Below, piece after piece: positions 1 to 31,260 of a stretch of DNA of 64,000 nt. Each line of letters begins with the position of its first letter. Position 1 is the first letter of the stretch. The DNA is taken from contig OZ296652.1 of the NCBI GenBank assembly GCA_965655095.1, positions 60,078,001 to 60,142,000 on the forward strand, written 5' to 3'. Made by a program: the position numbers and the translations under genes. A model generated the notes under the pieces. It had not been told where the DNA came from. It saw nothing but the letters and a program-made list of their open reading frames with translations, and did no database searches. Source of the DNA: Haplodiscus bocki (Eukaryota).

Positions 1-3000
1 TTGTTTTTTCCAGATTCAAATCGTACTCTTCATGCACTAGGGAGAAAAGATTGAGGACGGTGTGCATTTTGACGTATAAACTCAGAGGCAGAAATTTTTT
101 ATTGTTAAGGCGATGTTTGCATTTAAGGTCTTTTCCCACTTCCAATTTTGTTGCTTTGACTTGTATCTTTTCGATTTCGTGCATCTATTCTTTGTTGATG
201 CCAAACTTTTGGCAGCAGTGAATCAAAATTTGTAATACATGACCTAGATATGAAAGGAGTTCTGCTTTCAAGAGACCTTTTGATGAAAAGTTTCGCTTCA
301 GCTGGAAAAATGCTTCCATTCCTTTCTTCACTGATTCGCTGCAGTTGTCATTCCAAAATAGGTTTGGGTTGATCCGTGAGTGAATGTCACGTTGAACACT
401 TGTGAGCTTTTTTTCATGACTGTTTATGTACGCAGTAGTTGATCTGTTGATCATGATTAATTTTCCCCTAGAATCGTTCATTGGCTCTTTTTTTTCTCAA
501 CACCAGTCTCCGTTGTATCTGACATTGCCGTTAAGTTTTTCACTATCTGGTGTTTTGCATTTGATGTCATATGCAAATCCAAAGCTTTGATTGTGTGGAA
601 TATGGTCCGGGAGGTTGTTGATGAATTTCATGAACAGTAAGGTCCCCAGAATGCTACCTGGCGAGACACCACTGCTGAAAACTAAGAGATGTGATATGCT
701 GTTCTTTGTGCTGACGAACAGTTTTTTGTGATTAACGCACCTGTGCGGTATTAGAAACGTTTTCCTTTAATCGCAAATTCATGAAAAATACCCCCAAGAG
801 GAGGCGATCAGATATCTTTGTCGGAAGCTCTGGTGAAATCTAAGTATAGTACTGTGAGGTTTTGAATTGTTGCACGTTGATGCTTTTGGCAGAGAGTGTG
901 AAGAAACGGTAGAAACAGAACAGTTGCTGAAAGTTCAGCTTAGGACCCAATATTGTTCTGAAAATAAATGGCTTCAACAGTGTTTGTACAGTAGGTTGAA
1001 GATAAATTGCTCAATCCTTTTCAAGAAAAAGCAAACTAAGCTTACGTTTGTTGCTTCTGTTTGATTTAGCAAAACCAGGGATTTGATATGCGAAAGGGTT
1101 GAGCAGAGTTTTTTAAAATGATTTTTCTCCGGCCAATTTGTTCATGTTTATGTTTTGGAATATCAAAAAAAATTTCGTGAAATCATTTTGAGGCTGCTGA
1201 TGGTTCTTTATTCAAGACTTGTATTGGTTGTTGTATTTTAGTTGTAGACCCTTCCGAAGATTTGGTTAGAGAACTGGATTTCCTTTTTGTCGATTTTGGT
1301 TTTCTTCAAGAAATGTGGCAGTTGGGAAAAAATTTGGTGATCTTCTCATTGTCTAAGTATTCTCGAATGCTTTTGAGATAACGACTTTGGAAGATGATTT
1401 TCGGAGATGATGAGAATATCATTGTGTGCTTCTCGAATTTGGTTTTCCAACCGATTGAGCTTTTAATTTTTCTGTAGGTTCGAACTTGTCCACAGTATCC
1501 TTTTGGTGTTGATTTTTCTATCAACTTGCAAGTCATTTTCGAAATCCACGATGTTGGGTTCGTTGGGAGTAGTGTTATAATATCTGATTTCTCATTTTGT
1601 AAAACGCTGCATAATAAAGCTTCGTGATGATGTTGACAAAACTGTAACAGTAGGGCTTGAAAGGAAGGGATTCGTGTTTATTTTTTTTGCAAAGGTTTTT
1701 TGTACGCTCGTGCGACAGGACTGGGCACAAACTCGTGGTTTTCGGAAGTTCTGATGAGTGTGCTGAATGGAAAAGGTCCGAGCATATTTGGTTACTCGTT
1801 GAAAAGGTTACGTGGAGGTCATCTTCAAGGTCACATCTGAACAATTCTTCTGAATTCCTTCTGAGAACGATATCAAACTGTTGCTTCAAGTGGTTTGGTA
1901 AATGTCGGTTAATGAGTAGTTGCACCAGCTCATTGCAAAATTGCAAGATCAACCCATCTTGCTTCACTCTGTTTCTAAAAGATTTTTTAACTCGAAGAAA
2001 ACGTTTTGATCGTTTGAGGTTTCAATATGGTCAGAAACATTTGTGAGAAAACTTTCAAAGCTGTTTTTGGGACCAGAAGTGGACGATTTCGGAAAGCGCG
2101 TTGCAACGACAGCAGAAAAACGTAGGAGCTGGTACTGTTGGCAGACTGACCGAAACAACGTCTCTGAAGTCTTTTCGTCGAGGTAGACTTGATCATGGTT
2201 GAGCTCAGATTTCACTGCAATTACCGCACCTCCGTGTTTGGTACAGTGATTTTTTGGTTCTTTATTTTTTCTGTACATCAAGAACATCGGCAGGAAGAGT
2301 GCATTTTTTGGAACATCCGAAGTCAGTCAGGTCTCAGATAAACATGCAAAGTCATAGTCATGTGCAGTCATTGCTGTGCTGCGCTGAACGTCTTTCTTTT
2401 TTTTTCGAGATTCGGGAGCCTCCCGACATTGAAAGCTAGCAGTTTCAGCGTCTCTTGTCCTTTGTTTTTAAATTCAGAAAACGGTTTTCCATGGCTGTTT
2501 TCCTAGTCATTCGCATTTGGTACCTTGGTTTGTTTCAACTTTCAGTTTTCGAATATGGACGTTTAATTCGCGTATTTGTGGGTCTTTATCAGGTATCGCC
2601 TTGTCTGAAGACCTTCATTCACGGTCTGTGCGTCCATCAAACAGGGTTCTGAACTCATGAAGATAGGTTGATCGTACTTTTTCAGTTGATAGGCTGATGT
2701 CAGTATCACATCTTTGATGATTAGATTTTCTACACATACAAGTATTGTCCGTGTGTCCATTCACTCTGCTCTGTACTTTCCAAGACGCTGATATTTGCTT
2801 ATAACTCTTTTTTAACCTTGAACAATCCGATATCTCCTGCATCGCTTTTTTGTCCGAGTGTATCCGTTCGTCAGTCATTACGTGTAGTTGACGCATTTTC
2901 AGTCGCGCCACGTACCTTGAATCCGTAAACTGGGAAACTTTGCGGCAAGAACTCATCGAATGTTCCTTTTAGGTTGAGCATTGCGGCTTGCTTCGGGGGA

Positions 3001-3330
3001 TTTAAGTTCCTTGAGACCATTTTAAACTGTTTTATTAATCTTGTTTGATTTATCTAGTCTTTGCATGAACTTTAACATTTGCTGCTCTGGTTCTTTCAAG
3101 CCGTTCTCATATTTGTGTTGTTCTCTCCAGTTTCTTGAGAGGGTTACAGTTCTTTGTTTCTGTCGGCTCAATTGTTGTGTATGAGAAGCATTTTTGTGTA
3201 GGTTTTGATAAGGACACCAATTCTAGTTTGATCCATCGCACTGCATCTGGGAGTTGAATTCGTTGTTTTACAGCAAAAAGTGCACTCAAACTTGGGTTTT
3301 TTTCTTTTTTTTGTTCTCAGGAATGATATT
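1..3330 (-). mobile_element. Degenerate non-LTR retrotransposon (LINE, CR1/L2/Jockey-like) with ORF1, APE endonuclease and RT; runs off the left edge
   Basis: Minus-strand translations. APE: LKLLAFNVGRL (~2418-2450), DYDFACLSET*L (~2322-2360), HGGAVIAVK (ORF 1964..2287). RT: LYLDFTRASDK (~816-850) and SGVSPGSILGTLLFMKFINNLPD...FAYDIK (~560-675), equivalent to GVPQGS/FADD. ORF 185..481 resembles the RT C-terminal region. ORF 2563..2760 (RTILV...AYQLKKYDQPIFMS) resembles the ORF1 C-terminal part. Many stops and frameshifts. Confidence 0.9.
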
Positions 3331-3577
3331 TTAACACCTTCTTGTTCATTTGAATTTAAATCGCTTGTTCAAGTTGTCCATGCTGTAACAGATTTTCACG
3401 TGGTATGTGTAAAACATAGAGGATTCAAGGTTGCTAGTCCTGAAGAACTAGGCCGCTCCACGATAATTTCCCAAAAGCTACCTGCAAAAAAGAGCTAACA
3501 ATTTGACGATGTGGCGTGGAAAAAAACTGCTAGCACTAATACACTACGCCGCTCCAAGACAAAAAAGACTCATAAAG

Positions 3578-4331
3578 CTACCCAATGAAAAGCGTTAACA
3601 AGTTGACAAGATGTTGTGGAAATTTCACCGGAGGTTGTTTCTTCCGTTTTCCACCTGGGCGTTTCTTTGATTTTCTGTTCGTTGACTTCGAACGTTTTAA
3701 CAGAACAAGTTTTCGTAGCTGTCTTCGACTGCGAACAATTGTTTCAACGAATCTTGCGTTATTTGTTATTTCGGGGTGCACTTCCAATATTTCGTGCTTT
3801 TTGGGTTTTGACTTTTGCTTTGGTCTTGATAACAGGTGTTCTTCACTACAAATAACAATTGTTTTCACTTTTCTGATAAGTCAGAAAAATGTCAGGTGTT
3901 CCGTTTCTGCTGCCGAATACAATGGCGCACAGGTTGGAAACAACCTGGTTTAATTGCCCCACAAGCTCATCAACTGTCAGCGCTATGAAGTTGTTGCTTT
4001 TGTGCTTCGTGAGTCAATTGTTGAGTGTATCGTGCCAAAGAATGACGTCTCTTCTTTGCTCCAGATGTCCAAATGCCAACAGAAGCTGCATGTTTTTCGT
4101 TCTGTCCTTGTGGTAGAAGCTCAGACCACATCTTGAGAAGTTATTTTTTCGGTAATTGGCTGTATTAGTTTTCGAGACCTTGCTTGGAAAAGATTTTTCG
4201 GCTCTCAAAAGTACGCCAGTATCAACGATGAAGATCATCGCCTCGCTGGCTCGTCCCTGAAACTGTTTAATAAGTTTCCTGAAATTGCTGAAAAGGAATT
4301 CAGCCTTGTCAGTATCAGACACTAATCCCAA
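3578..4331 (-). pseudogene. Disrupted ORF, possibly a divergent SGNH/GDSL-esterase-like retroelement ORF with a basic tail
   Basis: ORF 4014..4331 reads through one stop into WHDTLNN*LTKHKSNNFIALTVDELVGQLNQVVSNLCAIVFGSRNGTPDIF, then ORF 3578..3868 (K/R-rich end). The spacing of MIFIVDT, GLSF and VILWHDTLNN is reminiscent of SGNH blocks I-III. Confidence 0.35.
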
Positions 4332-5699
4332 TAATGGTTTAGTTATTATTCTTTTACATAATGTTCATGTCAAAAATCTGAAGGTAGTTTAAACGACGTG
4401 CGAAATTATGAATGAAAGTCTTAAACATGCGAAGAAGTGGTAAATTTAATCTGCAAATGTCACAAACCAACGAAACCACATTTCACTATCGGAACTCCCT
4501 CGATTTGTGACCATGGAGCTCAGATAAACTTTGCAAGTTTGCCGTAAAAATGCGCGCGGTGCTCAACAGTCGCGACTTCTCGACAGAGTCGGACATAGGA
4601 AGATAAGCAATTCCCTCAACGTGGTCTTTCTAACTGCAGAGCTGCTGCTTTTCAGTGACCGTTGGCTGTAACGAGCCAAATAAAATTGTCGTTTTCCGTC
4701 GTGAAAAATTTTTCGAAAAATTTCGTGAAAATATTCAACTCCTTGGGGCTTTTCCCTTTTCCTGAAACAGCACAAGAAGCGCAGAATTCATTTCTAACAG
4801 AGCAGAATCGTTGGTGCCCTGTATATCAAGTATTTGAGGTGTCACTGCGGTTAGATAGCCTACAGGTAGTTGAAGTGAATCCCTGTATCAGCCATTTTTT
4901 ACATGTTTTCAGATATTCGTCAATACATTCTTAAATTTATTGAAGAAAAAACAATTTTCCGATTAAATTATGGCTTTTTTTCTGATATGTGAAGTCATAT
5001 TTTCTCAAAACTTGATTATTTCCCGACCTAATCGAAACAAATTGTTCATTTTCAATTTTTAATTGTTAATTTGTCAGTTTTCACACTCACAATTCTCTTA
5101 AACTACCGGCTGGAATTCTTCCGTCAAAGTCTCCGCCATGGTACTTTTCCAATCAAAAATGGTTTTTTTGTGAAAGTCATTTGCCGTACCTTTGATCCAT
5201 CATTTCTGCGCCCCTTTGATGGAAAATATCGCAAAGCAACAGCGCTTTTTGTTAACTGTTTGACTGAAATATTCCACCTGTAAATTCAAAAATGTGATGT
5301 TAATCCCAGGGTTTGAACAAACACTGTAAAAGCGGCGCGTGCAAAGACACCTGCGATGGCCGCAGGTAAAGTGTTCCGCAGAAAAAAATTACCTGCAGAT
5401 GCAGGCAAAATCTCAGCAGGTAACGATTGCAGGTACATGAATACAGGAAGGAATGCGTTGCTTTTTGTAGGGGAACCTGTCCTTAAGAATTCGAAAATCT
5501 AGTGACCCAGAGGAGGACTGACCAAATAGTACTGAAGTATTTCAGCACGCAGTTCGTTACGTCCTTCAGAACTGAAGCAGCAAAAAACAGTTGAGGTGCT
5601 GTTTCGTTGTTAGGAAAAAAGAAGCCCAAATTCGAGGAAACAAAAATCTAAAGAAGAAAGACTGTAAAAAAAACCTTATTGGACTACACTAAAAGGTAA

Positions 5700-6560
5700 C
5701 CTGAACAAACATGAATCTGAAACTTGGTGAAGTAAAGGCACAATGAGGACTCATATCCGACGCACAACGAGGAGACCTACCACTCCGATGCAAATTTATA
5801 TCTTATGTCCGGCGTCTTCTGGTCAAGCTTTCCTGCGGTTAGTAATGATTCGACTCTATGGTTACTTCTGAAAACCAAACCGTCCGTTTGCCAAATTCCA
5901 ATGTTATGTGTCTCATGAAGCTCTACTCCGTTTATGGCAAGAGTTGTGTCCTGATAGGTGTTAGTGGACAATCTTATTAAACCTGCTCGTTGGTGGCCCT
6001 ACCTCTGACGAGAATGTGTTTCTGGCCTGCAAAGACTTTAAAAAAGTTGAGCTCCGCGAGATACATAAATATCTCCAAAACCTGGTGCTCATAAGTTTTC
6101 CTGACGTATATGGAGTAATTTGGATACAACTTCCCTGTAACTTTGCTGTGTTGGTGAAGATACTTGCATCTATCTTTGGGTTTAGTCTTTTTCATCTCTC
6201 AGGTTGACATTTTTCCGTATTGATTTACAACAAAAATGTTCAAAGGTGGACTCCACAGCTCATTTAACCACGAAAAGAATGACTTTGGAGCTTTTGGTTA
6301 AAAACATATCTCGTTGCATCATCTTCATGTCTGTATGGATTGAATGTTGCAAAAATTGCTTTAGTGTGGTACTGTTTTGATGACACCAAATGTTTTCGAT
6401 AATTAGTTTGATGGGTATTCAGTCCTGTTCTTTAATTTTGCCTGTAAGTTTTATCCATACAATTTTCTAAAGTCGACTGATGAGCTTCATCAATGCTATC
6501 CAAATTTACCTCCAATGTCAAGCCGTCTTTCTGTCTAGCTTGGTTGCAATTAGTGGTAAA
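5700..6560 (-). pseudogene. Highly degenerate LINE RT fragment nested in the CACTG element
   Basis: Minus-strand pieces VKFLPLIATK..., VFNQKLQSHSFRG, IFMYLAEL..KVFAGQK and TTLAINGVE occur in the expected RT order but are very diverged. Confidence 0.35.
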
Positions 6561-6725
6561 AATTTGACTCACCTGCATTACCAGCAAAAGCGGAAAATAT
6601 TACCAATTTTACCAGCAGAGCGACGCATCTAAAAGGACCCAGGATGCGCTTTACCTGTGGTATATGCAGATTACCGGCAAAAACAGGTGAAGGTACCTGC
6701 CTCTACAAGGCACGCACCTAACTTA

Positions 6726-7055
6726 AGTAGTAAGAGAGTGCGTCGATCAGGCGGGGTAGGTGGAAGACCCTCTTTGTTTTATGATAGAGTAAAGGCCCTG
6801 GGGCCCGACATGGATCCTGCACCCGTGTAGTAAGATAGGCTAAATTTTGGCAAGGTTTTAGGATAAGGCATAGCTTCGGCAAGATTTTAAGGTAAGCTAT
6901 AGTTCGGCAATGTATTAAGATAGAGGATCTGAGTCAATGTAATAAGATAGGGATTGTATGAAGATAGAGACCTGACTCAGTGTTCTAAGGTAGAGGCCGT
7001 CCGAGTTAAGCGAAGTCTTAAGATACGGAGGCGAATCTAGGTAGGGTTCAATTTT
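6726..7055 (+). repeat. Left terminal repeat (Polinton-like TIR) with 'cggcaatgtattaagatag'-type subterminal repeats
   Basis: AGTAG start, the atcaggcggggtaggtggaagaccc motif and repeated taagatag units. Mirrors 18716-19037. Confidence 0.8.
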
Positions 7056-7384
7056 GAGTTTTGTTTTTGGTTCCGTCAACGCATTAGGATCCTACAATTG
7101 TAATAAGAAAAACAAGTACGTTTCATAAGGTAAAAACATGGGCTCATAAGTGAACCAGTGGATAAACAATGAACTTCTTGGCCATCTTTTGGTACTGCAA
7201 CACGTACGTTGAGATAAAGTTGGATTTTTGGAAGTAAAAACACATTGTACACCGTCCTATTTTACGAACCGATAATTACCAATATCATTCCTAATCCATA
7301 CACTCGCATGAAACAATCAAAGTCACCTTATGCTAATTTAACTTAGAGGCATATCGTGTTGAAAATGTCTTTCGTGAAAGAAAC

Positions 7385-7412
7385 TGATTGATTGATTGAT
7401 TGATTGATTGAT
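7385..7412. repeat. (ATTG)6 microsatellite, mirrored as (CAAT)6 at 17970-17997
   Basis: Read directly; same copy number in both arms. Confidence 0.95.
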
Positions 7413-10400
7413 ACAATCCTAATCATACTGTCAGACTTATATGCCACGTAGTTCGTAGTTTTTCCTAGATTGCCCAATGTTTTTCATAGCTATTGCATTT
7501 TTAACTTGACTGACCATATAGATATTGGAACTCTTTTCAGTTGCTGCTCATGAAATAACAACAAGAACTTAACGCCAAGATTCAGAAAGACAATTAAGCA
7601 GTACTTCTGCCGCAAAGAGTCGGGAAGATTACAGAAGAAAGGTTTCATTGAACAACATTCAGCAACGGAGTCAGCAATACTGTAAAATACTGCTACAAAT
7701 TTGAGGAATTTGACAGATAAAGTAAGTTTTTACGCTCCGTTCGGGGTTGTGTACATAAATCAATGAATTTGAGGCCAGGCAATTATACTGAAAATTTTAG
7801 TATGAGAGTTTCAGTTTGATATTCAAAGAGCATAAAGACATCGTTTTCAAGTTTCGAGTTTGATGTATTTATATCTTAAGCTAAATAGCGCCGGATTGTT
7901 TCCAAATGAAAATGCAGTCAAGCTTCAACGGTCAATCGAGGAGACTAAAGAGGTATAGAGGGGCGAGTCCGGCAAGTTGTTGGGAAAATACGACAACGAA
8001 TACAATGAAGTGTTCCTGTTGAACCTGTCTTCATTTGCCGTCCAAATATGCTTCTTCATGTTTGTGTTCCACACTTTTCGTATGAAACGTTTTGGCTGTG
8101 ATTGACGGAAGGCATACCGATAACGAACGAGTAGCAAAATTTTCTGAGATGATGAAATGAGTTGTAAATTAAGCAAGTGGGCTGCAACAACGCAAAATTA
8201 ATAATGACTGTTCAGTTGCGGTAAGAAATTGCTAATATGCTATCACACTTCATGGAGATACCCTAAAAGGAAAAAAATTTTGAACATAAGCATCAAAAAT
8301 CGAAATACGTATGAATATCATAAAAAGGACGTCTGGCTCTCGTAAAATCAATCAAACTGTAATTATCAATCTCTCCTCTCAGCTTTGATACCAACAACAA
8401 GGCAAAGAAAACCTAATGAAAAAAGACCAATATTCGCGTGATGGCGATATTCTGTTTGACAAAAGCAGCCGAGTGGAAAAATAGGTGGAATAGGCGACAG
8501 ACTACGTACGAAAATCGACCAAGTAGAACAAATTCCCTTACGAAAAGGACCCATTGTCTAGGGGAAATTACTCGATTGGAATCTATCGATCTAATAAAAA
8601 GACAGCTTGTCTGAGATGATGATTTACGTTCATCAATTTTTTTTCATTTCGACTGTCAATCACCAGACCTCAATGAAAGGCAAACTTTGTTAAACAGATT
8701 GAAATATTGGTAAATATATTGAAAACTTACGATAACAAATTCAGAGAATGATGGACATAAACTGTTGCTCAACACAGAAAGAGCGAATTTACTGATCCCA
8801 TTGAAATCTACAAAAGTCAAACCACTGTGTTTTATTTTACAAAACTGAACAAATCAAGAAAAACCCTTTATCAAAATGTGAATTCTAATCAGTATTACAT
8901 ATTTCAAACCTCACACTCACACGTTTTGAAAAATTGATTTAAAATCTGACACTTTGTGGAACTTTTGACTGAAAACTTGACATTATAATAGTTTCCATTC
9001 AAAATCTGACCTTCTGCAAAGCTTTTAAATTAAAAACTGCCACCTTGAAAACTTTTTGAATGAAATTTGATTTGTCTTAAACTTTTTGAATCAAAAACTG
9101 ATTTTTATTTTTCTTTTCGGGTTCTCACTGAATAATAGATTCCGTTGCTAAGATACAGAAAAAACAACTTTTTGCACAAAACAAAGTGAAATAGACGCCT
9201 TTCTTTATTTTCGCTTCAAAGTTGGGAATCGTTTGTAACATAACAGCAGCAGTGTGATTGTTAAATGTATTTTTTGAACTAAGGACTCTTAAGAACAAAA
9301 TAGTGTTAAAAATTGTATCAAATACCAAAAAAGGAAACACTTGCCATATTTGAAATTCGTTGTGTCTCGGACCAAAAGTTAAATGTGGTCCATATAAAAT
9401 AGGTATGAATCAGTTAAAATTGTATAAAAGCAGCAACTTATTACTTTGAAAAAACATTCGTCAAAAGTCGTTCTCAGCAAGAGCAACCCGTTTCTCCCAG
9501 CTACCGACGTACCAGACCACTGGAGAAATTTCTGACGAAAACTTGCCTACAATGAGAATTCAGTGCTCAAACTTTGTCGGAATTGAATGAATTTTACCTT
9601 TTCAATAATGTAATGAACAACTATAGAAAAACGTAAGAGTTTCACTATTATCCTACAAGGCTATCAATTTGTTCCCTTTTGTGCCCAGAAGTTGATCTTT
9701 TATCGAATTATGGTCAAAATTTCAAGAAGACGGTTTCTTTCGATGACATGATGCACCTCATTGCTGAGGAGAGAATCGTACCCCATGTAGATTTTGATTT
9801 TGGTCTTATTTTCTATCCCGGAGCACCCTCAAAAATTAAAAAGATCACCCGAGAACAGAAAAATTTTTCCGGAACCTTTGAAAAACCCAAGTGCATCCCA
9901 AGTAACAAACTAACACAACTGTTCTGTTGAGGAGGAGCATACAACTTTTAGCTTTCTGAGCCTTTACAATTTACGGACATGGATCTAGCAGCTCTTATGT
10001 CATTCATCCGCACTATTGATAGGGACACTATGTCTACTCGGTAGGTATCCTAAAACATTAACTCACCAACCTAGAACAGACCTATATCCGATGTTCTCTT
10101 CATGGCGCCTGATGGAAAGCAACAGGAAGGGTTTGCGCGTCAGTTTTGCATTCTTTCACAAAGATCACTTACCGGACGGACGATTGAACAAAAGAGTTGC
10201 TACAAATGAAAAATTGAATGATCTTTGGAAGCCCCGAGCAAGGTATGGAGTACCACCTTTTGTGTTGAACTGTAGTCGTAGTTAACTGTAGCTATTTGAT
10301 TTTTTTGTTTGATTTATATTGTTTGTTGGTGCAATGTTTTTGTTGTGTTTGTTCAAAATTTAATTTTTTTTCGTATTCTTTGATGATTTTGATTTGGAAG

Positions 10401-11689
10401 TAACACCTCAACAACAACTACTAATTAAGATAACATTCCCATAAGCAGCCGAAGCCGCAACCTGTTTTGGTACATTGCAGACGTTCATCCTACCGAAAAC
10501 ATTGGTACAAACCATCCTCAGCTTCCACTCTCCGTAACCTACTTCAATGCTTGAACAAGTTGGTCCACTGCTTTATCATAACGCATGACTCTATCATAGG
10601 AAAGCTATTAAAACACACTACATACCTCTATACATTGCAAGTCCAATAGTCTCTTTTAAAATTTTGTTGAATACCCTTCCTTATCTAAGTATAATGATGT
10701 ACCATCTCAGATCAGATTGGCTGTCTGAATTTGTCTTATTACGCTAATCACCGTTTGGAGCCCCGAAATCAATCCCAACATATTTACTTGACAAAACTAA
10801 CCCACACCATACATCAAAACTTTACCGAAACGTACCCCATTTAATTAAATGGACGAAAACTTGGAAAACTGCACAATAATTAGGTTAAAGTTCTGACACG
10901 TTGTAAAACTTTCAATTCAGAATCTGAGACGTTGTAAATCACCTTCTCTGAAATTTTTTATTTTTAATTTGTTTTTTGAATTTTGACTAAACGATCTTTT
11001 TTACTTCCAACGTTAATAACAAGTTGTTGTAAACAGAAGAAGTAACAACAATGTCTAAATAGGATTTCGTCGCCAGATGTAAACCTAAAAGCTGCCCCAC
11101 ATCGATTCGCCCCTCAACCTGGAAAGAATAGCGTTACGACGACACAGGATTTTAACATTGACTAACGGCAAAAATCTGTGGAGTATAAAAAGCACTAAAT
11201 CTAGCAGATCAACAACGTTTCTTTAATTACACAACTGTGAAAACACACGAAAACGCACTTTAATTGAAAATCTATCCATTTTCTTCAATTTTTTTGCGTG
11301 AGTAACAAGCAAAACAGGAACGACGATGGATAGTAGCTGACACTACCACAGAATTTGCCTAAATTTGGGTGCGGGACGTTACTTACCACTGTCTTGACAC
11401 CTATCAAAACGGAAGATGCTTGATCGCAAATCGAGTTTAGGACATGTGTGGTTCGAATATTGGCTTAGGTAACCCATACACTCTGGACCTCATAATTCAT
11501 CTTCAACTCTTGCAAATTTCGATGAAAATCTACGTTTTTGAACAAGTGTACAACCTTCTCAGCTTCTAGGCTAACTCTTCGTTTTTTATTCCTAATACAT
11601 TGAAGGTGTCATGCAATCGGTTTCTGCCGAAAGTTTACCCCTTTCTCAAGTCAATGACTGGGTCACCCAAATCCATATCATACAATCTT

Positions 11690-12615
11690 ATATCACCGAA
11701 CTATACCTTGCCCTAAAGCAATAGTGGTGAGTATACCCACGTTTAAAACTTTGCTGAGGTATACCCTGACTTGTTGAAATGTTGAGCTTTACCGAACGCT
11801 ATTACAATGCTGCAGTATATTCTACCTTAATACTTTGTTGAGCCGTTGATAATTTTAGACCTGTGCTGAGTTGTATCTCGTTTTTTAAAATTGCTGAGCC
11901 ATACCCAATCCTAACACATTGTTGAGGTATACCCTAAATTTTTACCCTGCTGAGCTGTTCCCAATGGTACAACCTCGCCAAAGTAGATCCTGACCTATTA
12001 GGTTGTTTAGCTATTCTCAATCTTAAAACAAGGCTGTCGTATATATAGCTTATTACAATGCTGAGCTAATCCTATTCTTATAACTTTGCTGAGGTATATC
12101 TTGTCTTAATACATTGCTGAGCTATACGAAATCCTCACACATGGGTGAGGTTAACGCGACTTTATTACCTTGCTGAGCTATTGTGAATCTTAATACATTG
12201 GTGAGATATACCATATCTCAACACATTGATGAGGAACACCATTTCTTATTATCTTTTTGAGCTTTTCCCATTCCTAATACAGTGCCGAGATAAAACTTGA
12301 TTTTTTACGTTGCTCAGCTTTTGCCAATCTTGAAACTTTGTTGAGTTTAATCTTACCTTATTACATTGCCGAGCTTTTCCCTTTCCTTATACACTGGTGA
12401 GTTGTACCCATTCCTATCACAATCATGAGTTATACCCTGTTCTTTTAATTTTTAATGAGTTGTTGTCAATCTTAATTCTTTAAATCCACTCCAATTACAA
12501 TGCTCAGCTTTGGCCATTCCTGAGGCATTGATGACGTATACCTTGTCTTTTTAAAATGCTGAGATATACCTTATCTTAATACGTTGTCCAACTATGACCT
12601 ATAATATTACATTGA
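11690..12615 (-). repeat. Degenerate ~33-bp tandem array (ttgctgagctataccctatcttaatacat-like), left of the palindrome centre
   Basis: Recurrent ttgctgag/ttgttgag and cttaatacattg words at ~33-bp spacing. Same motif family as the TIR subterminal repeats. Confidence 0.85.
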
Positions 12616-12789
12616 TGTCGGTTTTTGCAAACGTTGTCGGCAGCCAATCAGACTCGAATTTTGCGTCACCTAATAGCACCCGAAAGCTCTCAGCTAGGGT
12701 GGATGTTCCTAGGATCTGAGATAAGTTTTACCGGATTGACTCAATAGTGAATTCTGATTGACTGCCGACAACGTTTCCCGAAAACCGAC

Positions 12790-13560
12790 AGCAATGTAGT
12801 ACGATGGGTGAGCCCTCAGCAATGTAGTAAAGCAGGTATTACCTCAGCAGTGTTTCATGATTGGCAATATCTGAGCATTGTAAAAAAGCAGAATATACCT
12901 CGACAATGTATTAAGATTGGGAACAGCTCAGAATGATAATGAGATAGGGTGAACCTAATCAATGTGTTGAGATTTGGTATATCTCACCAATGTATTAAGA
13001 TTGGGGATAGATCAGCAAGGTAATAAAGTAGCGTGTACCTCAGCCATGTGAGAGAATTGCGAATAGCCCAGCAATGTAGTAAAACAAGCTATACCTCAGC
13101 AAGGTTATAAGAATGAGATTAGCTCAGGAGTATAGTAAGCTAGGGCATACGACAGCAATGTTTTAAGATTACGAAAAACTGAACAACATAATAAGTCAGG
13201 ATCTACCTTGGCGAGGTGTTTGCATTGGGAACAACTCAGCAAAGTAATAAGTAAGGGTATACATCCGCATTGTGATGGGATTGGGATTTAGCTCCGCAAT
13301 ACAATGAAACATGAAATAACTCTGTAAATTTCTAAGAATATGAAGAGCTCAGCAGAGTAATAAAGTAGAGTATACTTCAGCAATGTAATAACGTTAAGTA
13401 TATAGCTCAACAATATAAGAGGAAAGCCATAAGTCAGCAGTGCATTACGATAGCGTATACTCGCCAGCGATGTTTAAAATCAGGGTGAACTTAAGCAAGG
13501 TGGAAATTTTTAGTATGTGTTTGGCTGCCCGAGGCAGTGCATTGAGATAGGGTTAAACTT
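12790..13560 (+). repeat. Degenerate ~33-bp tandem array (ctcagcaatgtattaagat-like), mirror of 11690-12615
   Basis: Recurrent ctcagcaatgt and caatgtattaagat words. Confidence 0.85.
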
Positions 13561-15657
13561 TCGGCGGGAACCGAGTGCATGGGACCGTCGGTGTATAAGG
13601 GTTAGAAAAACGATGAAAAAGTCTGGAAGCTGAGGAGGTTGTACACTTATTCAATAACGTAGGTTTTCCTTGAAATTTGCAAAAGTAGAAGATAAATTTT
13701 GTGTTTGACAGTTTATGGGATACCTAAGGTAATACTTGAGCCACACATGTCCTAAACTCGATTTGCGATCAAGCATCTTCCATTTTGACAGACGTCATGA
13801 CAGTGGTAGGTAACGTCTTTCACCCATTCTTGGGCAGATTCTGTGTGAGTGTCAGCTACTCTCCATCATCGTTCTTGTTTTGCTTGTTTCTCACACAAAA
13901 AAGATGAAGAAAATCGATGGAATTTCAGAAAAAGTACGTTTTCTTTTGTTTTGACAGTTGTGTTTTTAAAGAAACGTTGTTGATCTGCTGTCTTTTGTGC
14001 TTTTTATGATTCACAGAGTTCTGCCGGAAGCCCATGTGGAAATTGTGCGTTGTCATAACGCTATTTTTTCCAGCTTGAAGGGCTAATTGAAGTGTGGTAG
14101 CTTTTAGGTTTACATCTGGCGACGAAATCCTATTTAGACATTGTTGTTACTTCTTCTGTTTACAACAACTTGTTATTAACGTTGGAAGTAAAAAAGATCA
14201 TTGAGTCAGAACCTGAAAAACAAGTTAAAATCAGATTTCACAGAAGATGTTTTACAACGTGTCAGATTTTGAAATGAAAAATATAAAACTTGTCAGAGTT
14301 TTACCCTACTTCCTGTACGGTTTGCCAGGTTTTCTTCTATTTAATTAAATAGGGTTCGTTTCGGTAATGTTCTGATGTATGGCGTGAGTCACTTTGGTCA
14401 AGTTATTGTGTTGGGATTGATTTCGGTTCTCCAGACGGTGATTAACGTAATGAAACATATTCAGACAGCCAAACCGATCTGAGTGGCTTCATCAATATAC
14501 TTAGATAAGGAGGGGTATTCAACAAAGTTATAGTGGAGACTATTGGAGTTGCAATGTATAGAGGTGGTTAGTCTGTTTTAATAGCTTTTCTTTGATAGTG
14601 TCATGCGTTAAGATAAAACAGAGGGCGGACCTGTTCAAGTATTGAAGTAAGTTACAGGGAGCGGAAGCTGAGGATGGTTTGTACCAATGTTTTCGGTAGG
14701 ATGAACGTCTGCAATGTACCAAAACAGGTTGCGGCTTCGGCTGCTTATGGGAATGTTATCTTAAATAGTAGTTGTTGTTGAGGTGTTACTTCCAAATCAA
14801 AATCATCAAAGAATACGAAAAAAAATTAAATTTTGAACAAACACAACAAAAACATTGCACCAACAAACAATATAAATCAAACAAAAAAATCAAATAGCTA
14901 CAGTTAACTACGACTACAGTTCAACACAAAAGGTGGTACTCCATACCTTGCTCGGGGCTTCCAAAGATCATTCAATTATCCATTTGTAGCAATTCTTTTG
15001 TTCAATTGTCCGTCCGGTAAGTGATCTTTGTGAAAGAATGCAAAACTGACGCGCAAACCCTTCCTGTTGCTTTCCATCAGGCGCCATGAAGAGAACATCG
15101 GATATAGGTCTGTTCTAGGTTGGTGAGTTAATGTTTTAGGATACCTACCGAGTAGACATAGTGTCCCTATCAATAGTGCGGATGAATGACATAAGAGCTG
15201 CTAGATCCATGTCCGTAAATTGTAAAGGCTCAGAAAGCTAAAAGTTGTATGCTCCTCCTCAACAGAACAGTTGTGTTAGTTTGTTACTTGGGATGCACTT
15301 GGGTTTTTCAAAGGTTCCGGAAAAGTTTTTCTGTTCTCGGGTGATCTTTTTAATTTTTGAGGGTGCTCCGGGATAGAAAATAAGACCAAAAATCAAATTC
15401 TACTTGGGGTACGATTCTCTCCTGATCAATGTGGTGTATCATGTCAAAGAAGGAAACCGTCTTTTTGAAAATATGACCACAATTTGATATAAGATCGACT
15501 TCCTGGCGCAAAAGAGAACAAAATGAAACCTTTGTAGGATATTAGGGAGAGTCTTGGGTTTTCTGTAGCTGTACATCACTTTATGGAAAAAGTAAATTTC
15601 ATTCAATTAATACAAAACTTGAGCTCTGGAGAAATGACCAGTGCTTTGGTACTTTGG

Positions 15658-16085
15658 TAGCAGGTGGAAGCGAGTTGCTGTTGCTGAGAACGATTTTAAA
15701 GAATGCTTTTTCAGAGTAGCAAATTGTTGCTTTTATACAAATTTTACCGATTTATACCTATCTTATAAGGACCACATCTACATTTTTGGTCCAAGACTCA
15801 ACAAATTTCAAACAAGGAAAGTGCTTCCCTTTTTGGTATCTGGTGCTTCTTTTAACACTAAGTTGTTCTCCAGTAGCTGGGAGAAACGAGTTGCTGTGGC
15901 TGAGAACGACTTTTGACGAATGTTTTTTCAAAGTAAAAAGTTGCTGCTTTTTTACAATTTTAACCGATTCATACCTATTTTATATGGACCACATTTAATT
16001 TTTGGTCCGAGACCCAACGAATTTCAAATATGGCAAGTGTTTCCTTTTTTGGTATTTGATACAATTTTTAACACTATTTTGTTCT
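15658..16085. repeat. ~215-bp tandem duplication present only in the right arm
   Basis: cgagttgctgt(t/g)gctgagaacga occurs at ~15671 and ~15887 (ORF 15641..15916 contains KRVAVAENDF twice). The left arm has one copy (~9290-9505). Confidence 0.85.
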
Positions 16086-18335
16086 TCAGAGTCCTTAGTT
16101 CAAAAAATACATTCAACAATCACACTGCTGCCGTTATGTTACAAACGATTCCCAACTTTGAAGCGAAAATCCAGAAAGGCGTCTATTTCACTCTGTTCTG
16201 TGCAAAAAGTTGTTTTTTTGTATCTTAGCAACGAAATCTTTTATTCAGAGAGAACCCGAAAAAAAAATAAAAAAAAACAGTTTTTGATTCGAAAAGTTTA
16301 GGACAATTCAAAATTCATTCAAAAAAATTACAAAGAGGCAGTTTTTAATTTAAAAGCTGAGCAGAAGGTCAGATTTTGAATTGAAACTATTTAAAAGTCA
16401 GGTTTTGAATCAAACAATTTAGAACGTGTCAGATTTTATCTCAAATTTTTAAAACGTGTGAGTGTGAGGTTTTGAATTAGTAACATTGATTAGAATTCAC
16501 ATTTTGAATTAGAGAGTTTCTTGATTTGTTTAGTTTTGTATAATAAAGCACCATGGTTTATTTTTTGAAGACTTTGATTGGATCAGTAAATTCACTCTTT
16601 CGGCGTTTAGCAATAGCTTACGCCGTTTACTCTATGAATTCGTTATCGTAAGTTTTCAACATCTTTGCTAATTTTTTTCAGTTTGATAGATGAATTTTTC
16701 CTTTTATTAAGGTCTGGTGATTGACAGACGAAATGGAAAAAAACTTGATGAACGTAAGTCATCATCTCAGACAAGCTGTCTTTTTATTAGATCGATAGAT
16801 TCCAATCGAGTAATTTCCCCTAGACAATGGGTCCTTTTCGTAAGGGAATTTGTTCTACTTGGTCGATTTTCGTACGTAGTCTGTCGCCTATTCCACCTAT
16901 TTTTCCACTCGGCTGCTTTTGTCAAACAGAATATCGCCATCACGCGAATATTGGTCTTTTTTCATTAGGTTTTCTTTGCCTTGTTGTTGGTATCAAAGCT
17001 GAGAGGAGAGATTGATAATAACAGTTTGATTGATTTTACGAGAACCAGACCTCCTTTTTATGGTATTCATACGTATTTCGATTTTTGATGCTTATGTTCA
17101 AATTTTTTTCCATTTAGGGTATCTCCATGAATTGTGATAGCATATTAGCAATTTCTTACCGCAACTGAACCGTCATTATTAGTTTTGCGTTGTTACAGCC
17201 CACTTGCTTAATGTACATCTCGTTTCATCATCTCAGAAAACTTTTGTTACTGTTTCATTATCGTTACGCCTTCCCTCGATCACAGCCAAAAATTTTTAAC
17301 TGAAAAGTGTGGAGCAAAAACATGAAGAAGCATATTTTGACGCCAAGCGAAGTGAAGTTCAACAGGATTAATTCATTGTATTCGTTGTCGCACTTTCTCA
17401 ACAACTTGCCAGACTCACTGCCCCTATACCTCTTTAGTCTCCTCGATTGACCGTTGAAACTTGACTGCATTTTTCTTTGAAAACAATCCGGTGCTATTTA
17501 GCTGAAGATATAAATACATCAAACTCGAATCTTGAAAAAGATGCCTTTATGCTCTTTGAATAACAAACTGAAACTCTCATACCAAAATTTTCAGTATACT
17601 TGCCTGGCCTCAAATTCATTGATTTATGTACACAACCCCGAACGGAGCGTAAAAACTTACTTTATCTGTCAAATTCCTCAAATTTGTAGCAGTATTTTAC
17701 AGTATTGCTGACTCCGTTGCTGAATGTTGTTCAATGAAACCTTTCTTCTGTAATCTTCCCGACTCTTTGCGGCAGAAGTACTGCTTAATTGTCTTTCTGA
17801 ATCTTGGCGTTAAGTTCTTGTTGTTATTTCATGAGCAGCAACTGAAAAGAGTTCCAATATCTATATGGTCAGTCAAGTTAAAAATGCAATAGCTATGAAA
17901 AACATTGGGCAATCTAGGAAAAACTACGAACTACGTGGCATATAAGTCTGACAGTATGATTAGGATTGTATCAATCAATCAATCAATCAATCAATCAGTT
18001 TCTTTCACGAAAGACATTTTCAACACGATATGCCTCTAAGTTAAATTAGCATAAGGTGACTTTGATTGTTTCATGCGAGTGTATGGATTAGGAATGATAT
18101 TGGTAATTATCGGTTCGTAAAATAGGACGGTGTACAATGTGTTTTTACTTCCAAAAATACAACTTCATCTCAACGTAACGTGTTGCAGTACCGAAATTTG
18201 GCCATGAGTTTCCATGTTTATCCATTGGCTCATATATGAGCCCATATTTTCACCTTAGGAAACGTACTTGCTTTTCATATTACATTTGTAGTACCTTAAT
18301 ATGCTGACGGAACCAACAACAAAATTCAAAACTGA

Positions 18336-18706
18336 TTTTTTTTACGGACATCCCATATTCATTCATTGCACACATGTGTTAGCATAGCAATGGAGTATCC
18401 GCAGGGGTCATAAATAACCATAGTTGTCATATTTAACCTAATTGTTATCCGTGGGCGGGCCTCTAAGAAAAATCAATTCAATTTTTTTTCTGCCATAAAA
18501 TCTCAGACAGAAAATGGCATAAAATGGGTCCTCAAAACCGACTCCCTATTTATTTACACTGCAAAACGCTATAGTTTAAAATTATAATTTACCCATCATG
18601 TAAAATATCCGCTGACGTCCTGAAAGATCCAGCTACATCATAAAGAAAATCCGTGTGGAAACCTAAAAAAAGTCACTAAAAATTCTCGAAAAAAACCTCA
18701 GAGCGC
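18336..18706 (-). mobile_element. 371-bp poly(A)-tailed insertion (SINE-like or 5'-truncated retroposon) with 9-bp TSD
   Basis: Absent from the left arm. Flanked by caaaactga (18327-18335) and caaaattga (18707-18715). T8 run at 18336-18343. Confidence 0.75.
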
Positions 18707-18715
18707 CAAAATTGA

Positions 18716-19037
18716 ACCCTATTTAGGTTCGACTCCGTATTTTAATACATTGCCTAACTCGGACGGCCTCTATCTTAAAACATTGAGTCGGGTCTCTATC
18801 TTCATACAATCCCTATCTTATTACATTGACTCAGATCCTCTATCTTAATACATTGCCAAACTATAGCCTACCTTAATACACTGCCGAAGCTATACCTTAT
18901 CCTAATACCTTGCCAAAATTTAGCCTATCTTACTACATGGGTGCAAGATCCATGTCGGGCTCCAGGGCCTATACCCGATCATAAAACAAGGAGGGTCTTC
19001 CACCTACCCCACCTGATTGACGCACTCTCTTGCTACT
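18716..19037 (-). repeat. Right terminal repeat (Polinton-like TIR)
   Basis: Reverse complement of 6726-7055; ends ...ttgctact. Confidence 0.8.
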
Positions 19038-19836
19038 CACGTAGAATTCACGCGATAGCAGGTGAGTCTACCCGCGGTTTGATAGCAAATTGCCTGCATT
19101 TGCGGGTATTTTTGCCTGTGATTGCAACTTTTCTTGCCTGCGCTTGCGGGTGTTTTGTCCTGTGTTTGCTGGTTTCTTTGCCTGAGTTTAAAGGTGTTTT
19201 TGCCTGCAATTGCGGGCGTTTTTGGTTGCAATTGAGGCTCTTTTTGCCTGCGTTTGCAGGTATATTTGCCTGCGTTTGCGGGTATTTTTTTCTGCGGTTG
19301 CTTGTGTTGTTGCTTGCAAATTACATAATGCAGTCTAACTTACCTGCAAATTGCAGGTGGATTTACCCGCGGTGTGATAGCAGATTGCCTGCAATTGCAG
19401 GTAATTCTGTATCGAATTACAGGTTTTTTGCCAGCGATTGTTCGGGTATTTATTCTTGCGTTTGCATTTATTTTTGCCTGCGTTTGGCGGGTATTTTTAC
19501 CTGCGATTCTAGTGTTTTTGCCTGCAAGTTGCATGTATTTTTGCCTGCAAAAGTAAGCAATTATGCCTGCCATTCGCGGGCAAATTCCCATGAGTTCCCC
19601 ACGTGAAAATACCACTAAAACACTCGTTACATTCAAGTAAATTTACATGCGGCTGGAAGCAATTCGCGTGTTTTCTGCGCGAAGTGCTTGCCGCGTAGAC
19701 GCGGGTAAATTTACCTGTTGTTACAGATGAACTGCAGGTAACGCATGTAAGCTGCGTGTGAAGCCTTTTTACATGCAATCCGCCGGTAAAGTTACCTGCA
19801 CTAGCAGATAACCTTGCACGCGTCAGTTTTACAGTG
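19038..19836. repeat. ACCTGC/TTTGCCTGC-rich subterminal repeat field of the CACTG element
   Basis: Repeated tttgcctgcgtttgcgggtatttt-like units and small acctgca/tgcaggt inverted words. Confidence 0.8.
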
Positions 19837-22800
19837 AACGGCACTTTTTTGCTGGAAAATTGTTAAAAGCACAAAAACACAGCAACTTGCACGTATCCAC
19901 TCATTTTTGCTGAATCATCGGAAGTCCTCAATTCCGTACCCGATTGTGTCTTGTTTTTTTCCAATGGATAATTTCACTCAAGAATCACGACAGGTTTTTT
20001 CATGCTGTGTGCTTGGCTGATGTGTACAAGTAAATTGATAACCTTTGATGATTTTTGGGAATTTGAAAGGATTTTTTATTACCAAAATTTGTTAGTTAGG
20101 CAGATCCCCATGAAAGCAGTGTACTAACTCTCCATCCTTTGTCTTAGTCATTACTGCTTAGAACCTGGCCTCGAAGAAAGTTGGTGCCTCCTGTTTTGTT
20201 TAGCTTGGCAGCTACATCAACAGTTGTCTGACTTTGAATATTTTACTCGATTTAACTCACTATAAAAAAACGGCAAGAATCATGTGACGTTGCAGAATCT
20301 GTTACTGCTTTGTGTTTTCAAGTCATGTCTTTTTAGTTTCCATTGTAATATAACAGGAGAGAAGAAACATCATATCAGAATTGAGAGTTTCTTCTGCACC
20401 GGTGTGCCGCTTCTGGCTTCGTCAACAGCGTCAACTGATGATTTGCCTGACTTCCTACATTAAGTGGTTAATTGCCAAAATAGACGACAAACAACGACGG
20501 TTTTCTTTATCCCAATTAGGCCATGACTTCTTTTCAAAGAGTGGAATTTTGAAAGCGGTCAATTTACACCCAAATCCCGGAAACAAAATTCTTCCAATTC
20601 AACAATTGACTCCTCCAAGTATGATGAATTCCTACATTAAAACATGCGCGGAGGGGAATTATTTAGATAGAACGATGGTTGATATTCGGTTGGCAAAATA
20701 TTCGAGCTCTTTAATTCCTTTCTTGTATTTTCTGCGCTTTTTTTCAATGCTCTTCACCAGTCACATATGCCTTTCCCAGACCACCCCGAAGAGCTGAATG
20801 AACTGAAACACCATGGCATGGATTGTCCACAAGAATATGAGGGCCATTGTCTGAACGGACAAACACGCTTTTGTCCAGAGCGTGCTGAAGGTCCCGCATG
20901 CATTTGCCCTGAAATTTACGCCGGTGTGAGATAATAAACTTACATGTGGTGGACGAAACAACCTTCGTGGAAAAACGTTATCATCTACTAGTCGGCTACC
21001 ACTGCATTGAAAAAAAGGAATAAATTATTTCATTGACGCGTTATCAAGCTAGGAAAGGAGAACATTTTGTGGTTTTTTTCGCAACTAATTCTTCTAAGGC
21101 TAAGCAGATGAGAAAGCCTTCTTTGAAATTTTGGAAATTGAACAAATTTCCACGTTGCTCCTGGTTTTACGAAAACTCCAAAACTTGTCGAGCAGTTAAT
21201 TTCATTCTGGAGGCCACAAATCTATTGGCGCATCAACATGAACTAAAGACCAATGAAGTGTAATGTACACAAAATCCTCAGAATACAACACCCAGTGGAC
21301 TGCAGGCCATTTACTTAGTTGTCAGAAACCGAAGTCATCACAGTGACGAAGATTAGCTGCCATGAAGTAAGAATATTTATTATCAACATCAAGGAATTTG
21401 TTACCCATCGACGAGATTAGCAGCTCAGAAAACATCTCTGTGACATTACAGCAACTTTTGGAATTTGAACAAAAGATAGCATAAGCCTTATACTTCAGTT
21501 CCAACAACAAAATTCTAGAAATTTCCGTACAACGTATAGTACTTACGCTTTTCATGGAAGTTATTTTGATTTACTTAGACAATCTCGTGATATCCGATGA
21601 AGGGTTTTAGTTACGATCATGTTAGAGATGTTTTATCAACAGAGGGTATTCTGGTAATTTTCAAAACAGACGAAAACTCTTTGCGGTTCGTGATTGGTTT
21701 ATGTAGAGAAACTGGCCCAATCGTTTATACTGATGTTTACCGCCCTTGCGGTCATCGGGTAATCGAAAATCGAAACAGTTGGCTGTTTCACAAACGCAAA
21801 GAATACCAGTTAATTTGTTTCATAACTACAACCTCTTCTTCTTTGGATAACTGCTAGCAGTTTGTCAGAGTTTACGCGCAGAATGTCTAACTTTAAACTT
21901 CAATCCTCATTTCAATCTTTGGCAGGGACGTTTTTCAAGAAAACAAAATACTGAGTCCTGTTGTAGCTTACTTCGAGGGGCTTGGAAAGAAAAAAACTCC
22001 AATCATTTTCAGAAAAAAATCGCTTTAAGGGTCAAAAAGCAAGCCACAATACTGTTTGGGCCGCCCTTTTGTCCTAACTTGTTTGTCAAAAGGCAAAGAA
22101 AATCTACTTCTGGATTACACAACATTTATATGATCGTGACTGAATAGATGGAACTCACTCTTACTCCATTTTTTTAACGAAATTTTTACAAGTTTCAATT
22201 TTCGGTATCCAATTGCCGTTTTTTGAAGAAAGAAAGAGGTAGTGTGACTTGATGCGAAGACATATCTTCAATGTCTTCAATCAAGAGACAGTCGGATGTC
22301 CTAAAGTAACAGATTTGACGTAACAACTTAACAGACTTTGCTCCATCCACGACCACTTTGAGCTTTACTTTGGCCAATGCTTGGGAAAAGGACATTTTGT
22401 TACTAGAAGTGTTCGTAATCCAGCCACAACAAACTGTCTAAATAACAATTGAAACTTCAATAGCGTAATCTACCTGTCTATCCGAACCTGTTTCTAAGGC
22501 TATTGACAGCACTTCAACAATTGGGTGCGGCCAATGACCTGCGTAAAAAAGTTGCTACGCTAAGGAAGAGGTGTTGGAATTTGCTGCTCAAATTTTTTCA
22601 CAAAAGTACTTTCATTCAAACGACCCCTGAAGAGAAAACTAAACTCAAAGATAATGTAACTCAAACAAATTTTTGAGAAAACATCAATTTAATTAACGCT
22701 TTAATGCACTACACTCGTCGCATTAAAAACCATGTCCCACAAGAGACTGCAGAATTTCGTCAAAAAGCACAACGTTCACTCCTTAGACTACCTACAACTT

Positions 22801-30400: not shown

Positions 30401-31260
30401 AGTAGAAGAGAAATAGATAGGTGAGCAGATCAGGTGAGGAGGGGGTGGAGGCCCCTCCATGTAAAATGATAAAGTTTAAGAGCTCGGTTGAGCCTAAAAC
30501 CGAGAAGGGGCCTCCGTCCCACGGGAGAGCTCTCTAGTGATTTTCAATCTACTGATACTCGATTCTGCTTGGTTGCCGAGGGTTTTTGTGCTGGATTTTG
30601 ATTGGCTCTTCCAATTTTTTGGTTGTGGGCGAAAACAACGGCAATATCTTAAGATAGGAAATGATCTTCGGTGGGGTACTAAGATACTGATTTTCAGTAA
30701 CGTATTGGTAAAAATTTTAGGGTTGTGCGACCTATGAGGATACGCAGTGGGGATTTAAGACTCGTTTATGGCACTGTGAAATAACTTTTTTCGAAATCAA
30801 AGACGATGCTTCAAGATTGGAAATGATTTTCGGTATTGTATTGAGATGGGGAGTGACTTTCGGTATTGTATTAGTAGGAGCTATATGGTTTTGCAACGTG
30901 AAAAGATACGGAGTGGGGTTTAATGACTCCTTGTCGGCACTGTGGGACTACTTTTTGTTCAAGGAAATGGGCTTTTACCAAGAATTTTTCAGGCGTACCT
31001 GTCATTGCCCACTACCCGTGCGGATTCTTTATTACGCCTGTGGGTACCATGTTACGCCTTGGGTTTTTGTTTTGACTTATTGGCATCTGAAAATATCGCT
31101 CGACTACATATTGAGACAGTGTATTGAGAAGGGGTAGAGTTCAGTCATGTAAAAGGATAGTGTACAGTTGAGTAATGTATTAAGATAGGAAATAGTTCGG
31201 CGGTTATTAGCATAAATTTTACTTAGGTTATGCCTCGGGAAAAGTTGCTAGACGGAAAAA
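30401..31260 (+). repeat. Polinton-like TIR pointing rightwards, with decayed subterminal repeats
   Basis: agtagaagag...gtgagcagatcaggtgaggagggggtggaggcccc resembles 6726ff. Repeats include cggtattgtattgagatgggg and aatgtattaagatagg (~31174). Confidence 0.7.

Follow-up and report, generated by a model that had tools for sequence, protein, structure and literature searches.

Organization of the palindrome E1

The window, a stretch of 64,000 nt from contig OZ296652.1 of Haplodiscus bocki, contains two palindromes, here termed E1 and E2. Self-comparison of the window identified E1 as a single inverted repeat of 12,312 bp (6726-19037). Its arms displayed 87.9% identity over 5,668 aligned columns and were also separated by indels. 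The following features were assigned to E1 and its borders:

6720-6725, no strand: putative target-site duplication of 6 bp, left copy, degraded, sharing 4 of 6 letters with 19038-19043
6726-7056, plus strand: outer left TIR, beginning with AGTAGT, a terminal block followed by about seven 28-bp units
7057-11574, no strand: left arm interior, no recognisable gene, part low-copy and part dispersed repeats
11575-12614, minus strand: left-arm inner array in right-hand TIR orientation, with about 32 28-bp units
12636-12652, plus strand: 17-mer of the long TIR type with a CCAAT box, exact match to 60318
12653-12712, plus strand: truncated TIR, continued as far as one arm of its natural inverted repeat, which is included
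12694-12712, no strand: fold point, with a 5-bp stem, a 9-nt loop (12699-12707) and its axis at 12703
12753-12769, minus strand: mirror 17-mer, one mismatch
12792-13562, plus strand: right-arm inner array with about 24 units, lacking about 216 nt near the centre relative to its mirror
13617-18706, no strand: interior of the right arm, in which 15657-16089 is a tandem duplication of 216 bp and about 370 bp (18336-18706) have no left-arm counterpart
18707-19037, minus strand: outer right TIR, ending with GCTACT (19032-19037)
19038-19043, no strand: right copy of the putative, degraded 6-bp target-site duplication, from comparison of the flanks

The centre of E1 was also found in raw data from four runs (X1-X4), which represent two samples of one study; X1, X2 and X4 possibly come from the assembly's own sample. 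A contig of 1696 nt (12075-13770) covered the centre in X1 with one other letter and in X2 with four, and the fold was also crossed by contigs 12552-13770 (X3) and 12629-13770 (X4). Summed contig depth, which was used as high versus low only and never as copy number, was hundreds-fold over the flank in the bins of TIRs and arrays, and parts of the E1 interior were about single-copy. E1-type ends are abundant, and the E1 palindrome itself is not.

From about 10500 to 15900, long contigs showed about half the depth of the outer parts and the flank (X1, X3, X4). Diverged alleles, a deletion allele or library bias may account for this half depth of the central 5 kb or so. A short dispersed repeat, with many loose contig ends at 10892, is common to both E1 arms and E2 (8833-9093, 10814-10986, 14205-14351, 16308-16475 and 38202-38339).

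Arrays and fold point at the centre of E1

At the centre of E1, two arrays (11575-12614, minus; 12792-13562, plus) mirror each other and are built from the unit family also seen in the outer TIRs, in agreement with the original prediction. The unit strands show that these arrays are inward-pointing ends, so that each serves as the right-hand TIR of its arm, as had been proposed. The unit had been put at about 33 bp. However, its period is 28 bp (TRF), and the autocorrelation of the left array was 0.47-0.50 at 28, 56 and 84 versus 0.32 at 33. Units were scored with a matrix built from 33 of the inner-array units, which therefore score by construction. Among the tested right units, 8 of 17 found their best partner on one mirror diagonal (75-96%), compared with 54-71% for the best outer unit. 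Because the right units pair best along one mirror diagonal, the inner arrays are copies of each other.

Four sites of the window carry the 17-mer with at most three mismatches, namely 12636 (plus), 12753 (minus), 60318 (plus) and 30564 (minus, 3 mismatches). The copy at 60318 was confirmed to lie between an array and the motifs CCACCCC (60459) and CCACCTGA (60470). The outer ends of E1 are without the 17-mer block altogether, and the inner and outer ends of E1 are therefore of different subtypes. The CCAAT box noticed in the 17-mer is present at 12642 and 60324 and is altered in the other two copies. A role as a functional signal is unsupported, with 2 of the 4 copies altered and RRCCAATSR occurring 14 times in the window.

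The TIR was thought to end at the 17-mer, but it runs ungapped for about 58 nt further along an intact end of the long type, which forms the left end of E2:

30401-31210, plus strand: intact long-type end and left end of E2, beginning with AGTAGA, with a degraded 17-mer at 30564-30580

The left inner end of E1 matched this intact end at 36/59 positions in 12636-12694 and at 10/18 in 12695-12712, followed by only 5/28. Therefore, the left inner end stops about 105 nt before the terminus. The right inner end stops about 120 nt before the intact terminus. By this alignment about 105-120 nt are missing, instead of the terminal 150-200 bp or so that had been estimated.

A natural inverted repeat is present in the end at 30401; its arms lie 120-107 and 55-41 nt from the terminus and match at 12/14 positions. 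A single-strand hairpin was predicted for it with z -2.67, reached by 1 of 200 shuffles. This inverted repeat is clear in one of the four intact ends of the window. The outer right end has a weaker one (11/14) with no folding signal (z +0.19), and the remaining two ends have none at the corresponding place. The loop region of E1 is one arm of the TIR's inverted repeat, and positions 12697-12708 match the reverse complement of 60453-60464 at 11/12. As a single strand, 12600-12810 gave a predicted hairpin of z -9.3, with none of 200 shuffles as good. By alignment, the E1 fold is placed on the inverted repeat known from the intact end at 30401. Array orientation and end alignment thus agree that each arm runs from TIR to TIR and that a cut-short TIR holds the tail-to-tail fusion of the arms, as first suggested.

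Outer ends, flanks and a probable target duplication

The outer TIRs of E1 are 331 bp long and 90% identical to each other, and the inversion stops at AGTAGT and GCTACT. The Maverick motif is exact at 6726 (AGTAGT), and GCTACT (19032-19037) and AGTAGA (30401) match it at 5/6. AGTAGT occurs 21 times in the window, counting both strands.

The insertion site of E1 is a highly abundant host repeat with tandem units of 22-23 bp (6600-6725 and 19038-19860). To analyze the overlap of the flanks, we used a related host-repeat copy at 19664-19750 (minus strand) and set the diagonal from the left flank (30/40). On this diagonal the right flank resumed with 10/12 at an overlap of 6 nt, compared with at most 6/12 at the other 12 offsets. 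For overlaps of 7, 8, 9 and 10 nt the matches were 1, 5, 1 and 3 of 12 at this one locus. A match of 10/12 is reached by 8 of the 127,976 12-mers of the window, the length of 12 nt having been picked after inspection of the data. Over 20 nt the overlap gave 10/20, with p 0.019 at the set offset and 0.32 for the best of 26 offsets. The best ungapped 23-nt match of the right flank fell at another place in the host repeat, with 15/23 at 19758 versus 14/23 at 19681. A 77-nt period in the host repeat was considered as an explanation of this second register and was unsupported by the sequence. Because a single host repeat appears to run on across both flanks with an overlap of 6 nt, E1 was probably integrated whole, with a 6-bp duplication. 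If so, chromosomal fold-back is no explanation for E1.

A second, older palindrome

E2 is an older palindrome extending from 30401 to about 60510, and its ends are of the E1 end family. Inverted matches of 57-68% were found along its length, with the axis near 39000. The left arm is about 8.4 kb long, whereas a 3-kb unit present in about six tandem copies has enlarged the right arm. In addition to the left end given above, two features were assigned:

38818-38914, plus strand: E2 centre junction, an outward-reading TIR terminal block, an inverted-repeat arm and then the TIR backwards
59839-60510, minus strand: E2 right end of the long type, with the 17-mer at 60318, exact terminus decayed

The tandem copies of the right arm (41128-59426) are non-coding units of 3.03 kb that are 92-99% alike. 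Each has an (AGAC)n tract, and inverted matches to the left arm were found for parts of the unit. The right arm also includes an N gap (56903-57046). An old direct duplication is present in the left arm (31384-31852 and 33057-33526, 68%), and a related block is directly duplicated in the left end (30630-30790 and 30792-30956). The array of the right end holds an inverted duplication of 400 bp (59839-60237, 81%), about 470 nt from the terminus. This is a local duplication and not an element centre; arrays fold elsewhere too. No target duplication was seen in the flanks of E2, where the right terminus has decayed.

At the centre of E2, the top two non-self matches of 38818-38841 in the window were the outer terminal blocks of E1 (20/24 and 18/24). 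The 24 nt before the inverted-repeat arm matched the inward-reading TIR at only 4/22 on that diagonal. Beyond the arm, 38856-38914 matched the E1 centre at 33/59 and the end at 30401 at 30/59. For the post-junction sequence of E1, 33/59 was found on only 2 of 126,164 diagonals outside the E1 centre, and these two were the intact end at 30401 and the centre of E2. An array unit at 39060 scored 17 against a background maximum of 13 in 20,000 positions. This arrangement is the one expected if a strand had reached the outer arm of the inverted repeat, annealed to the inner one and been extended back. Against it, the centre block was closer to the outer ends of E1 (28-30/38) than to those of E2 itself (19-20/38). 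In local alignments, which also speak against it, the E2 centre showed a weak match to the end at 30 kb, with 4 of 352 null windows as good, and was within chance for the end at 60 kb, where 268 of 352 scored as well.

Randomly placed fold points had been named as the observation that would speak against the original prediction, and the strand switch of E2 lies at the same TIR site as that of E1. The interiors of E1 and E2 showed no homology beyond dispersed-repeat matches of about 100 bp. Therefore, either the fold occurred twice at one site or one old junction was inherited, and the two junctions may represent one ancestral event rather than two.

Gene content and family assignment

None of the 86 ORFs of at least 42 aa in E1 (43 in the left and 43 in the right interior) matched a Pfam family, and a further 142 ORFs gave three weak, unrelated matches below the curated cut-off. 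The Pfam scans comprised 107 and 142 ORFs, all from outside 1-6720 (where there are 45 ORFs) and outside the tandem copies of 44200-59430. Rfam gave no match over 6500-19200. Patterns of the ends and arrays had no match in viral contigs or in metagenome contigs. Long ORFs were absent from the window, and the search for coding constraint in the E1 arms gave mismatch periodicity at p 0.01 in 1 of 23 windows, which was not significant after correction. Genes for PolB, integrase, ATPase, protease or capsid were not found among the scanned ORFs of E1 and E2.

Termini of the type (AGT)2//(ACT)2 together with a 6-bp target duplication are described as the commonest Maverick signature (PMC8097293), and 6-bp target duplications are likewise reported as a signature of Mavericks (PMC3014272). 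E1 carries termini of the Maverick kind, (AGT)2//(ACT)2 or (AG)3//(CT)3. Its outer TIRs of 331 bp fall within the 46-1447 bp of Maverick TIRs. For the 6-bp duplication, the E1 flanks favour an overlap of 6 nt (10/12; 10/20) with only 4/6 letters matching, and none was seen for E2. Long arrays of tandem units in the TIRs are reported as typical of cut-and-paste foldback elements (PMC4079207), and the 28-bp arrays are present in all ends. The target duplication of 7-10 bp that goes with foldback elements was not found at E1, the one locus available. Judged by its ends alone, E1 is likely of the Maverick/Polinton type. Since the ends match and no Maverick gene is present, it would be at most a non-autonomous derivative and not an autonomous Maverick.

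Probable exchange between the arms of E1

The arms of E1 consist of blocks with 81-85% identity, which alternate with tracts of 559, 261, 729 (6 differences) and 101 bp. The longest identical run was 559 bp, compared with at most 99 in 1000 column shuffles. The three longest tracts are:

7224-7782, no strand: identical tract of 559 bp, the same as 17600-18158, likely arm-to-arm conversion
8362-8622, no strand: identical tract of 261 bp, the same as 16759-17019, polymorphic, with a diverged left-arm allele in reads
9798-10526, no strand: tract of 729 bp with 6 differences from 14663-15391

On the assumption of 31-mer contigs, the tract edges predict contig ends at 16788, 10497, 15362 and 18129, and the diverged allele predicts ends at 8392 and 16989. 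All of these were seen, and in total at least seven contig ends fell where the 31-mer assumption places them. The start at 18129 was found as predicted in X1 and X4, and at 18099 instead in X2. Breaks occurred at 16788 in X1 and X4 and at 16989 in X2 and X3; among the contig ends listed, X2 and X3 had no break at 16788. Contigs starting at 8392 had 27 (X3) and 29 (X2) letters other than those of the left arm in the assembly, and X1 showed both left-arm forms (11.7 of 52.9). A change of depth between 14684 and 14693 agrees with the predicted contig end at 14692, and alternative letters at these two positions were present in all four runs among the rows listed. Contigs of raised depth covered 14765-15391 (X1, X2, X4) and 14729-15391 (X3). 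The contig 14765-15391 spans six differences between the arms, contrary to perfect 31-mer agreement. Beyond the rows listed there are 254 further letter rows and 1284 joints, which may include other junction forms.

In 8422-8593 and 14663-14764, the arms are identical in the assembly and diverged in some read sets.

Because two identical tracts vary between alleles, these results point to ongoing arm-to-arm gene conversion that is still polymorphic, which is the simplest reading, although with library types unrecorded some read-level artefacts may be involved. E1 also provides an example from nature of what looks like gene conversion between arms with 15-19% divergence.

Origin of the palindromes

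We incline, with little more confidence than doubt, to the reading that E1 is a tail-to-tail dimer of a gene-less element of about 6 kb and of the Maverick/Polinton type, formed by fold-back self-priming at the TIR inverted repeat. The starting feature is the long-type end with its 12/14 inverted repeat. A single-stranded 3' end towards the terminus, left by resection or by the early stop of a strand-displacing polymerase, would anneal at this repeat. The last 30-40 nt would be lost, and synthesis would return across the 17-mer and the array to copy the entire element. Once the hairpin had been copied, the product would be a linear duplex whose outer ends are both good and whose middle holds a dead end. 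The dimer would have been integrated whole into the host repeat with a 6-bp duplication, as the flanks support, presumably by a Maverick integrase acting in trans. Of the two centres, that of E1 keeps one arm of the inverted repeat and no spacer, and that of E2 keeps the distal part of the spacer and shows the strand switch directly. After insertion, the arms would have drifted to 81-85%, and patchy conversion may have reset the observed tracts of 100-700 bp to identity.

In yeast, fold-back inversions are reported to centre on natural inverted repeats of 3-15 bp near the break, with the flap trimmed (PMC10622511). In the window, the centres of E1 and E2 both stop or switch strand at the short inverted repeat seen in the intact end at 30401. 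Hairpin (self-primed) rescue of the resected end of a linear replicon had been proposed for E1 at the outset. The fold-back at a natural TIR inverted repeat is the part of this proposal that we favour, and copy-back after an early stop gives the same product as rescue of a resected end. Early release of the nascent strand would yield it without removal of a protein-capped 5' end; a terminal-protein domain has been reported in polinton polymerases (PMC11071308). Judging by the ends, the parent may have been a linear replicon. It is likely that giant palindromes such as E1 and E2 arise by self-copying of an element end that has folded at a small hairpin of its own, because E1 and the older E2 both turn inside their own cut-short end.

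Joining of two element molecules, either sister or related copies, would give the same junction as fold-back if they were annealed or joined by microhomology-mediated end joining, tail to tail, at the TIR inverted repeat and then integrated. The arms are 15-19% apart outside the identical tracts, a divergence that could predate such joining, and chimeric copies of two subfamilies are described for Galileo (PMC3573991). However, arm divergence is even along the length, which fits decay in place with a target duplication at 4/6, and both junctions lie at a site able to self-pair within one strand. Neither point is decisive, and we consider the joining of two molecules unlikely.

A cut-and-paste foldback family (Mutator-, Galileo- or Tetris-like), in which aberrant transposition with sister-chromatid ends would require no linear replicon, appears decidedly improbable. 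The flank overlap is 6 nt and not 7 (Galileo) or 8-10 (Tetris), the left end is exactly (AGT)2, and the inner ends are cut inside the TIR and not at transposase cut sites, although long TIRs with tandem arrays, the high depth of the TIR bins and the lack of genes resemble the pattern reported for foldback elements (PMC4079207).

We give very little credence to the central arrays being an independent MITE or foldback element inserted midway in an older palindrome. Their outer edges carry neither a duplication nor a terminal motif (AGTAGT or CAGGTG), as the original prediction implied, and they point inwards, the wrong direction for an element of the array family. Five direct repeats at mirror positions of the array edges are all self-complementary words made by the symmetry, and arm homology continues unbroken from the array into the interior, with 12815-15869 and 12373-9292 in one alignment. 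These observations stand against the abundance of the array family and the different subtype of the inner ends, which would suit such an insertion.

It is also highly improbable that the palindrome or its identical tracts are an artefact of assembly, polishing or read consensus, since the fold is crossed by contigs in all four runs from both samples, the arms differ by 12% overall plus indels, and the breaks in X1 and X4 at the positions predicted for the identical tracts show this form in the reads as well, even though two runs have a diverged left arm where the assembly has an identical tract, contigs of the central 5 kb or so have about half the depth seen in the outer parts, and three of the runs are possibly from the assembly's own sample with library types unrecorded.

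To return to fold-back at the TIR inverted repeat, a wider proposal may be made, which we hold to be possible and yet doubtful. Maverick-type elements with a built-in snap-back site in the terminal repeat would repeatedly turn short, gene-less derivatives into genome-sized palindromic satellites, a germ-line-fossilised counterpart of copy-back genomes, and the arms would go on exchanging long after insertion. If the snap-back reading is true, a buried inner end marks the route of formation. The new aspect is that the fold point is tied to a specific TIR inverted repeat in two elements of different age. Through a fold point at this repeat, the snap-back origin becomes a prediction that can be mapped.

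Comparison with known systems

E1 resembles the Mavericks/Polintons described so far in its (AGT)2-type terminus, TIRs of several hundred bp and a probable target overlap of 6 nt (PMC8097293, PMC3014272, PMC8969392). Its size of 12.3 kb is near the lower range of 12.7-24.6 kb reported for these elements. It differs from them in that no polymerase, integrase, capsid, ATPase or protease gene was found, and in that the entire element forms a single palindrome, has a truncated TIR in the centre and carries 28-bp arrays in its TIRs. To our knowledge, replication of Mavericks outside the chromosome has never been directly observed. Maverick particles had not been seen at the time of one account (PMC8097293). 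In the literature covered, with subscription journals and repeat-database notes outside its scope, we found no description of gene-less palindromes with Maverick ends.

The foldback elements Galileo (PMC3573991) and Tetris (PMC4079207) are described as having long, internally repetitive TIRs, a non-coding middle and many rearranged forms, as is seen for E1. However, reported target duplications are 7 bp for Galileo and 8-10 bp for Tetris, compared with the 6-nt overlap of E1. The arms of Galileo and Tetris are presented as elongated TIRs, whereas those of E1 are whole TIR-to-TIR units fused at a cut end.

Like E1, yeast fold-back inverted duplications centre on an inverted repeat that is short, imperfect and naturally present close to a DNA end, and their terminal flap is lost, as proposed for E1 (PMC10622511). 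In contrast, E1 is bounded by element ends between continuous host flanks, and the product described for yeast is a dicentric chromosome. A hairpin and duplex deletion derivative of the protein-primed linear plasmid kalilo was reportedly described by Vierula and Bertrand in 1992, according to the title of their work. By that title it would be, like E1 in the reading favoured here, a gene-depleted derivative of a protein-primed linear replicon in the form of hairpin and duplex. Unlike E1, kalilo is a fungal mitochondrial plasmid, and the comparison is one of title alone.

Mammalian sex-chromosome palindromes are like E1 in having identity tracts between inverted arms (PMC8600007, PMC8981503). 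The mammalian arms are reported to be more than 99% alike, whereas the conversion tracts of E1 lie in arms of 81-85% identity and in a mobile element. Finally, snap-back palindromes of Mavericks would be the DNA counterpart of copy-back defective viral genomes.
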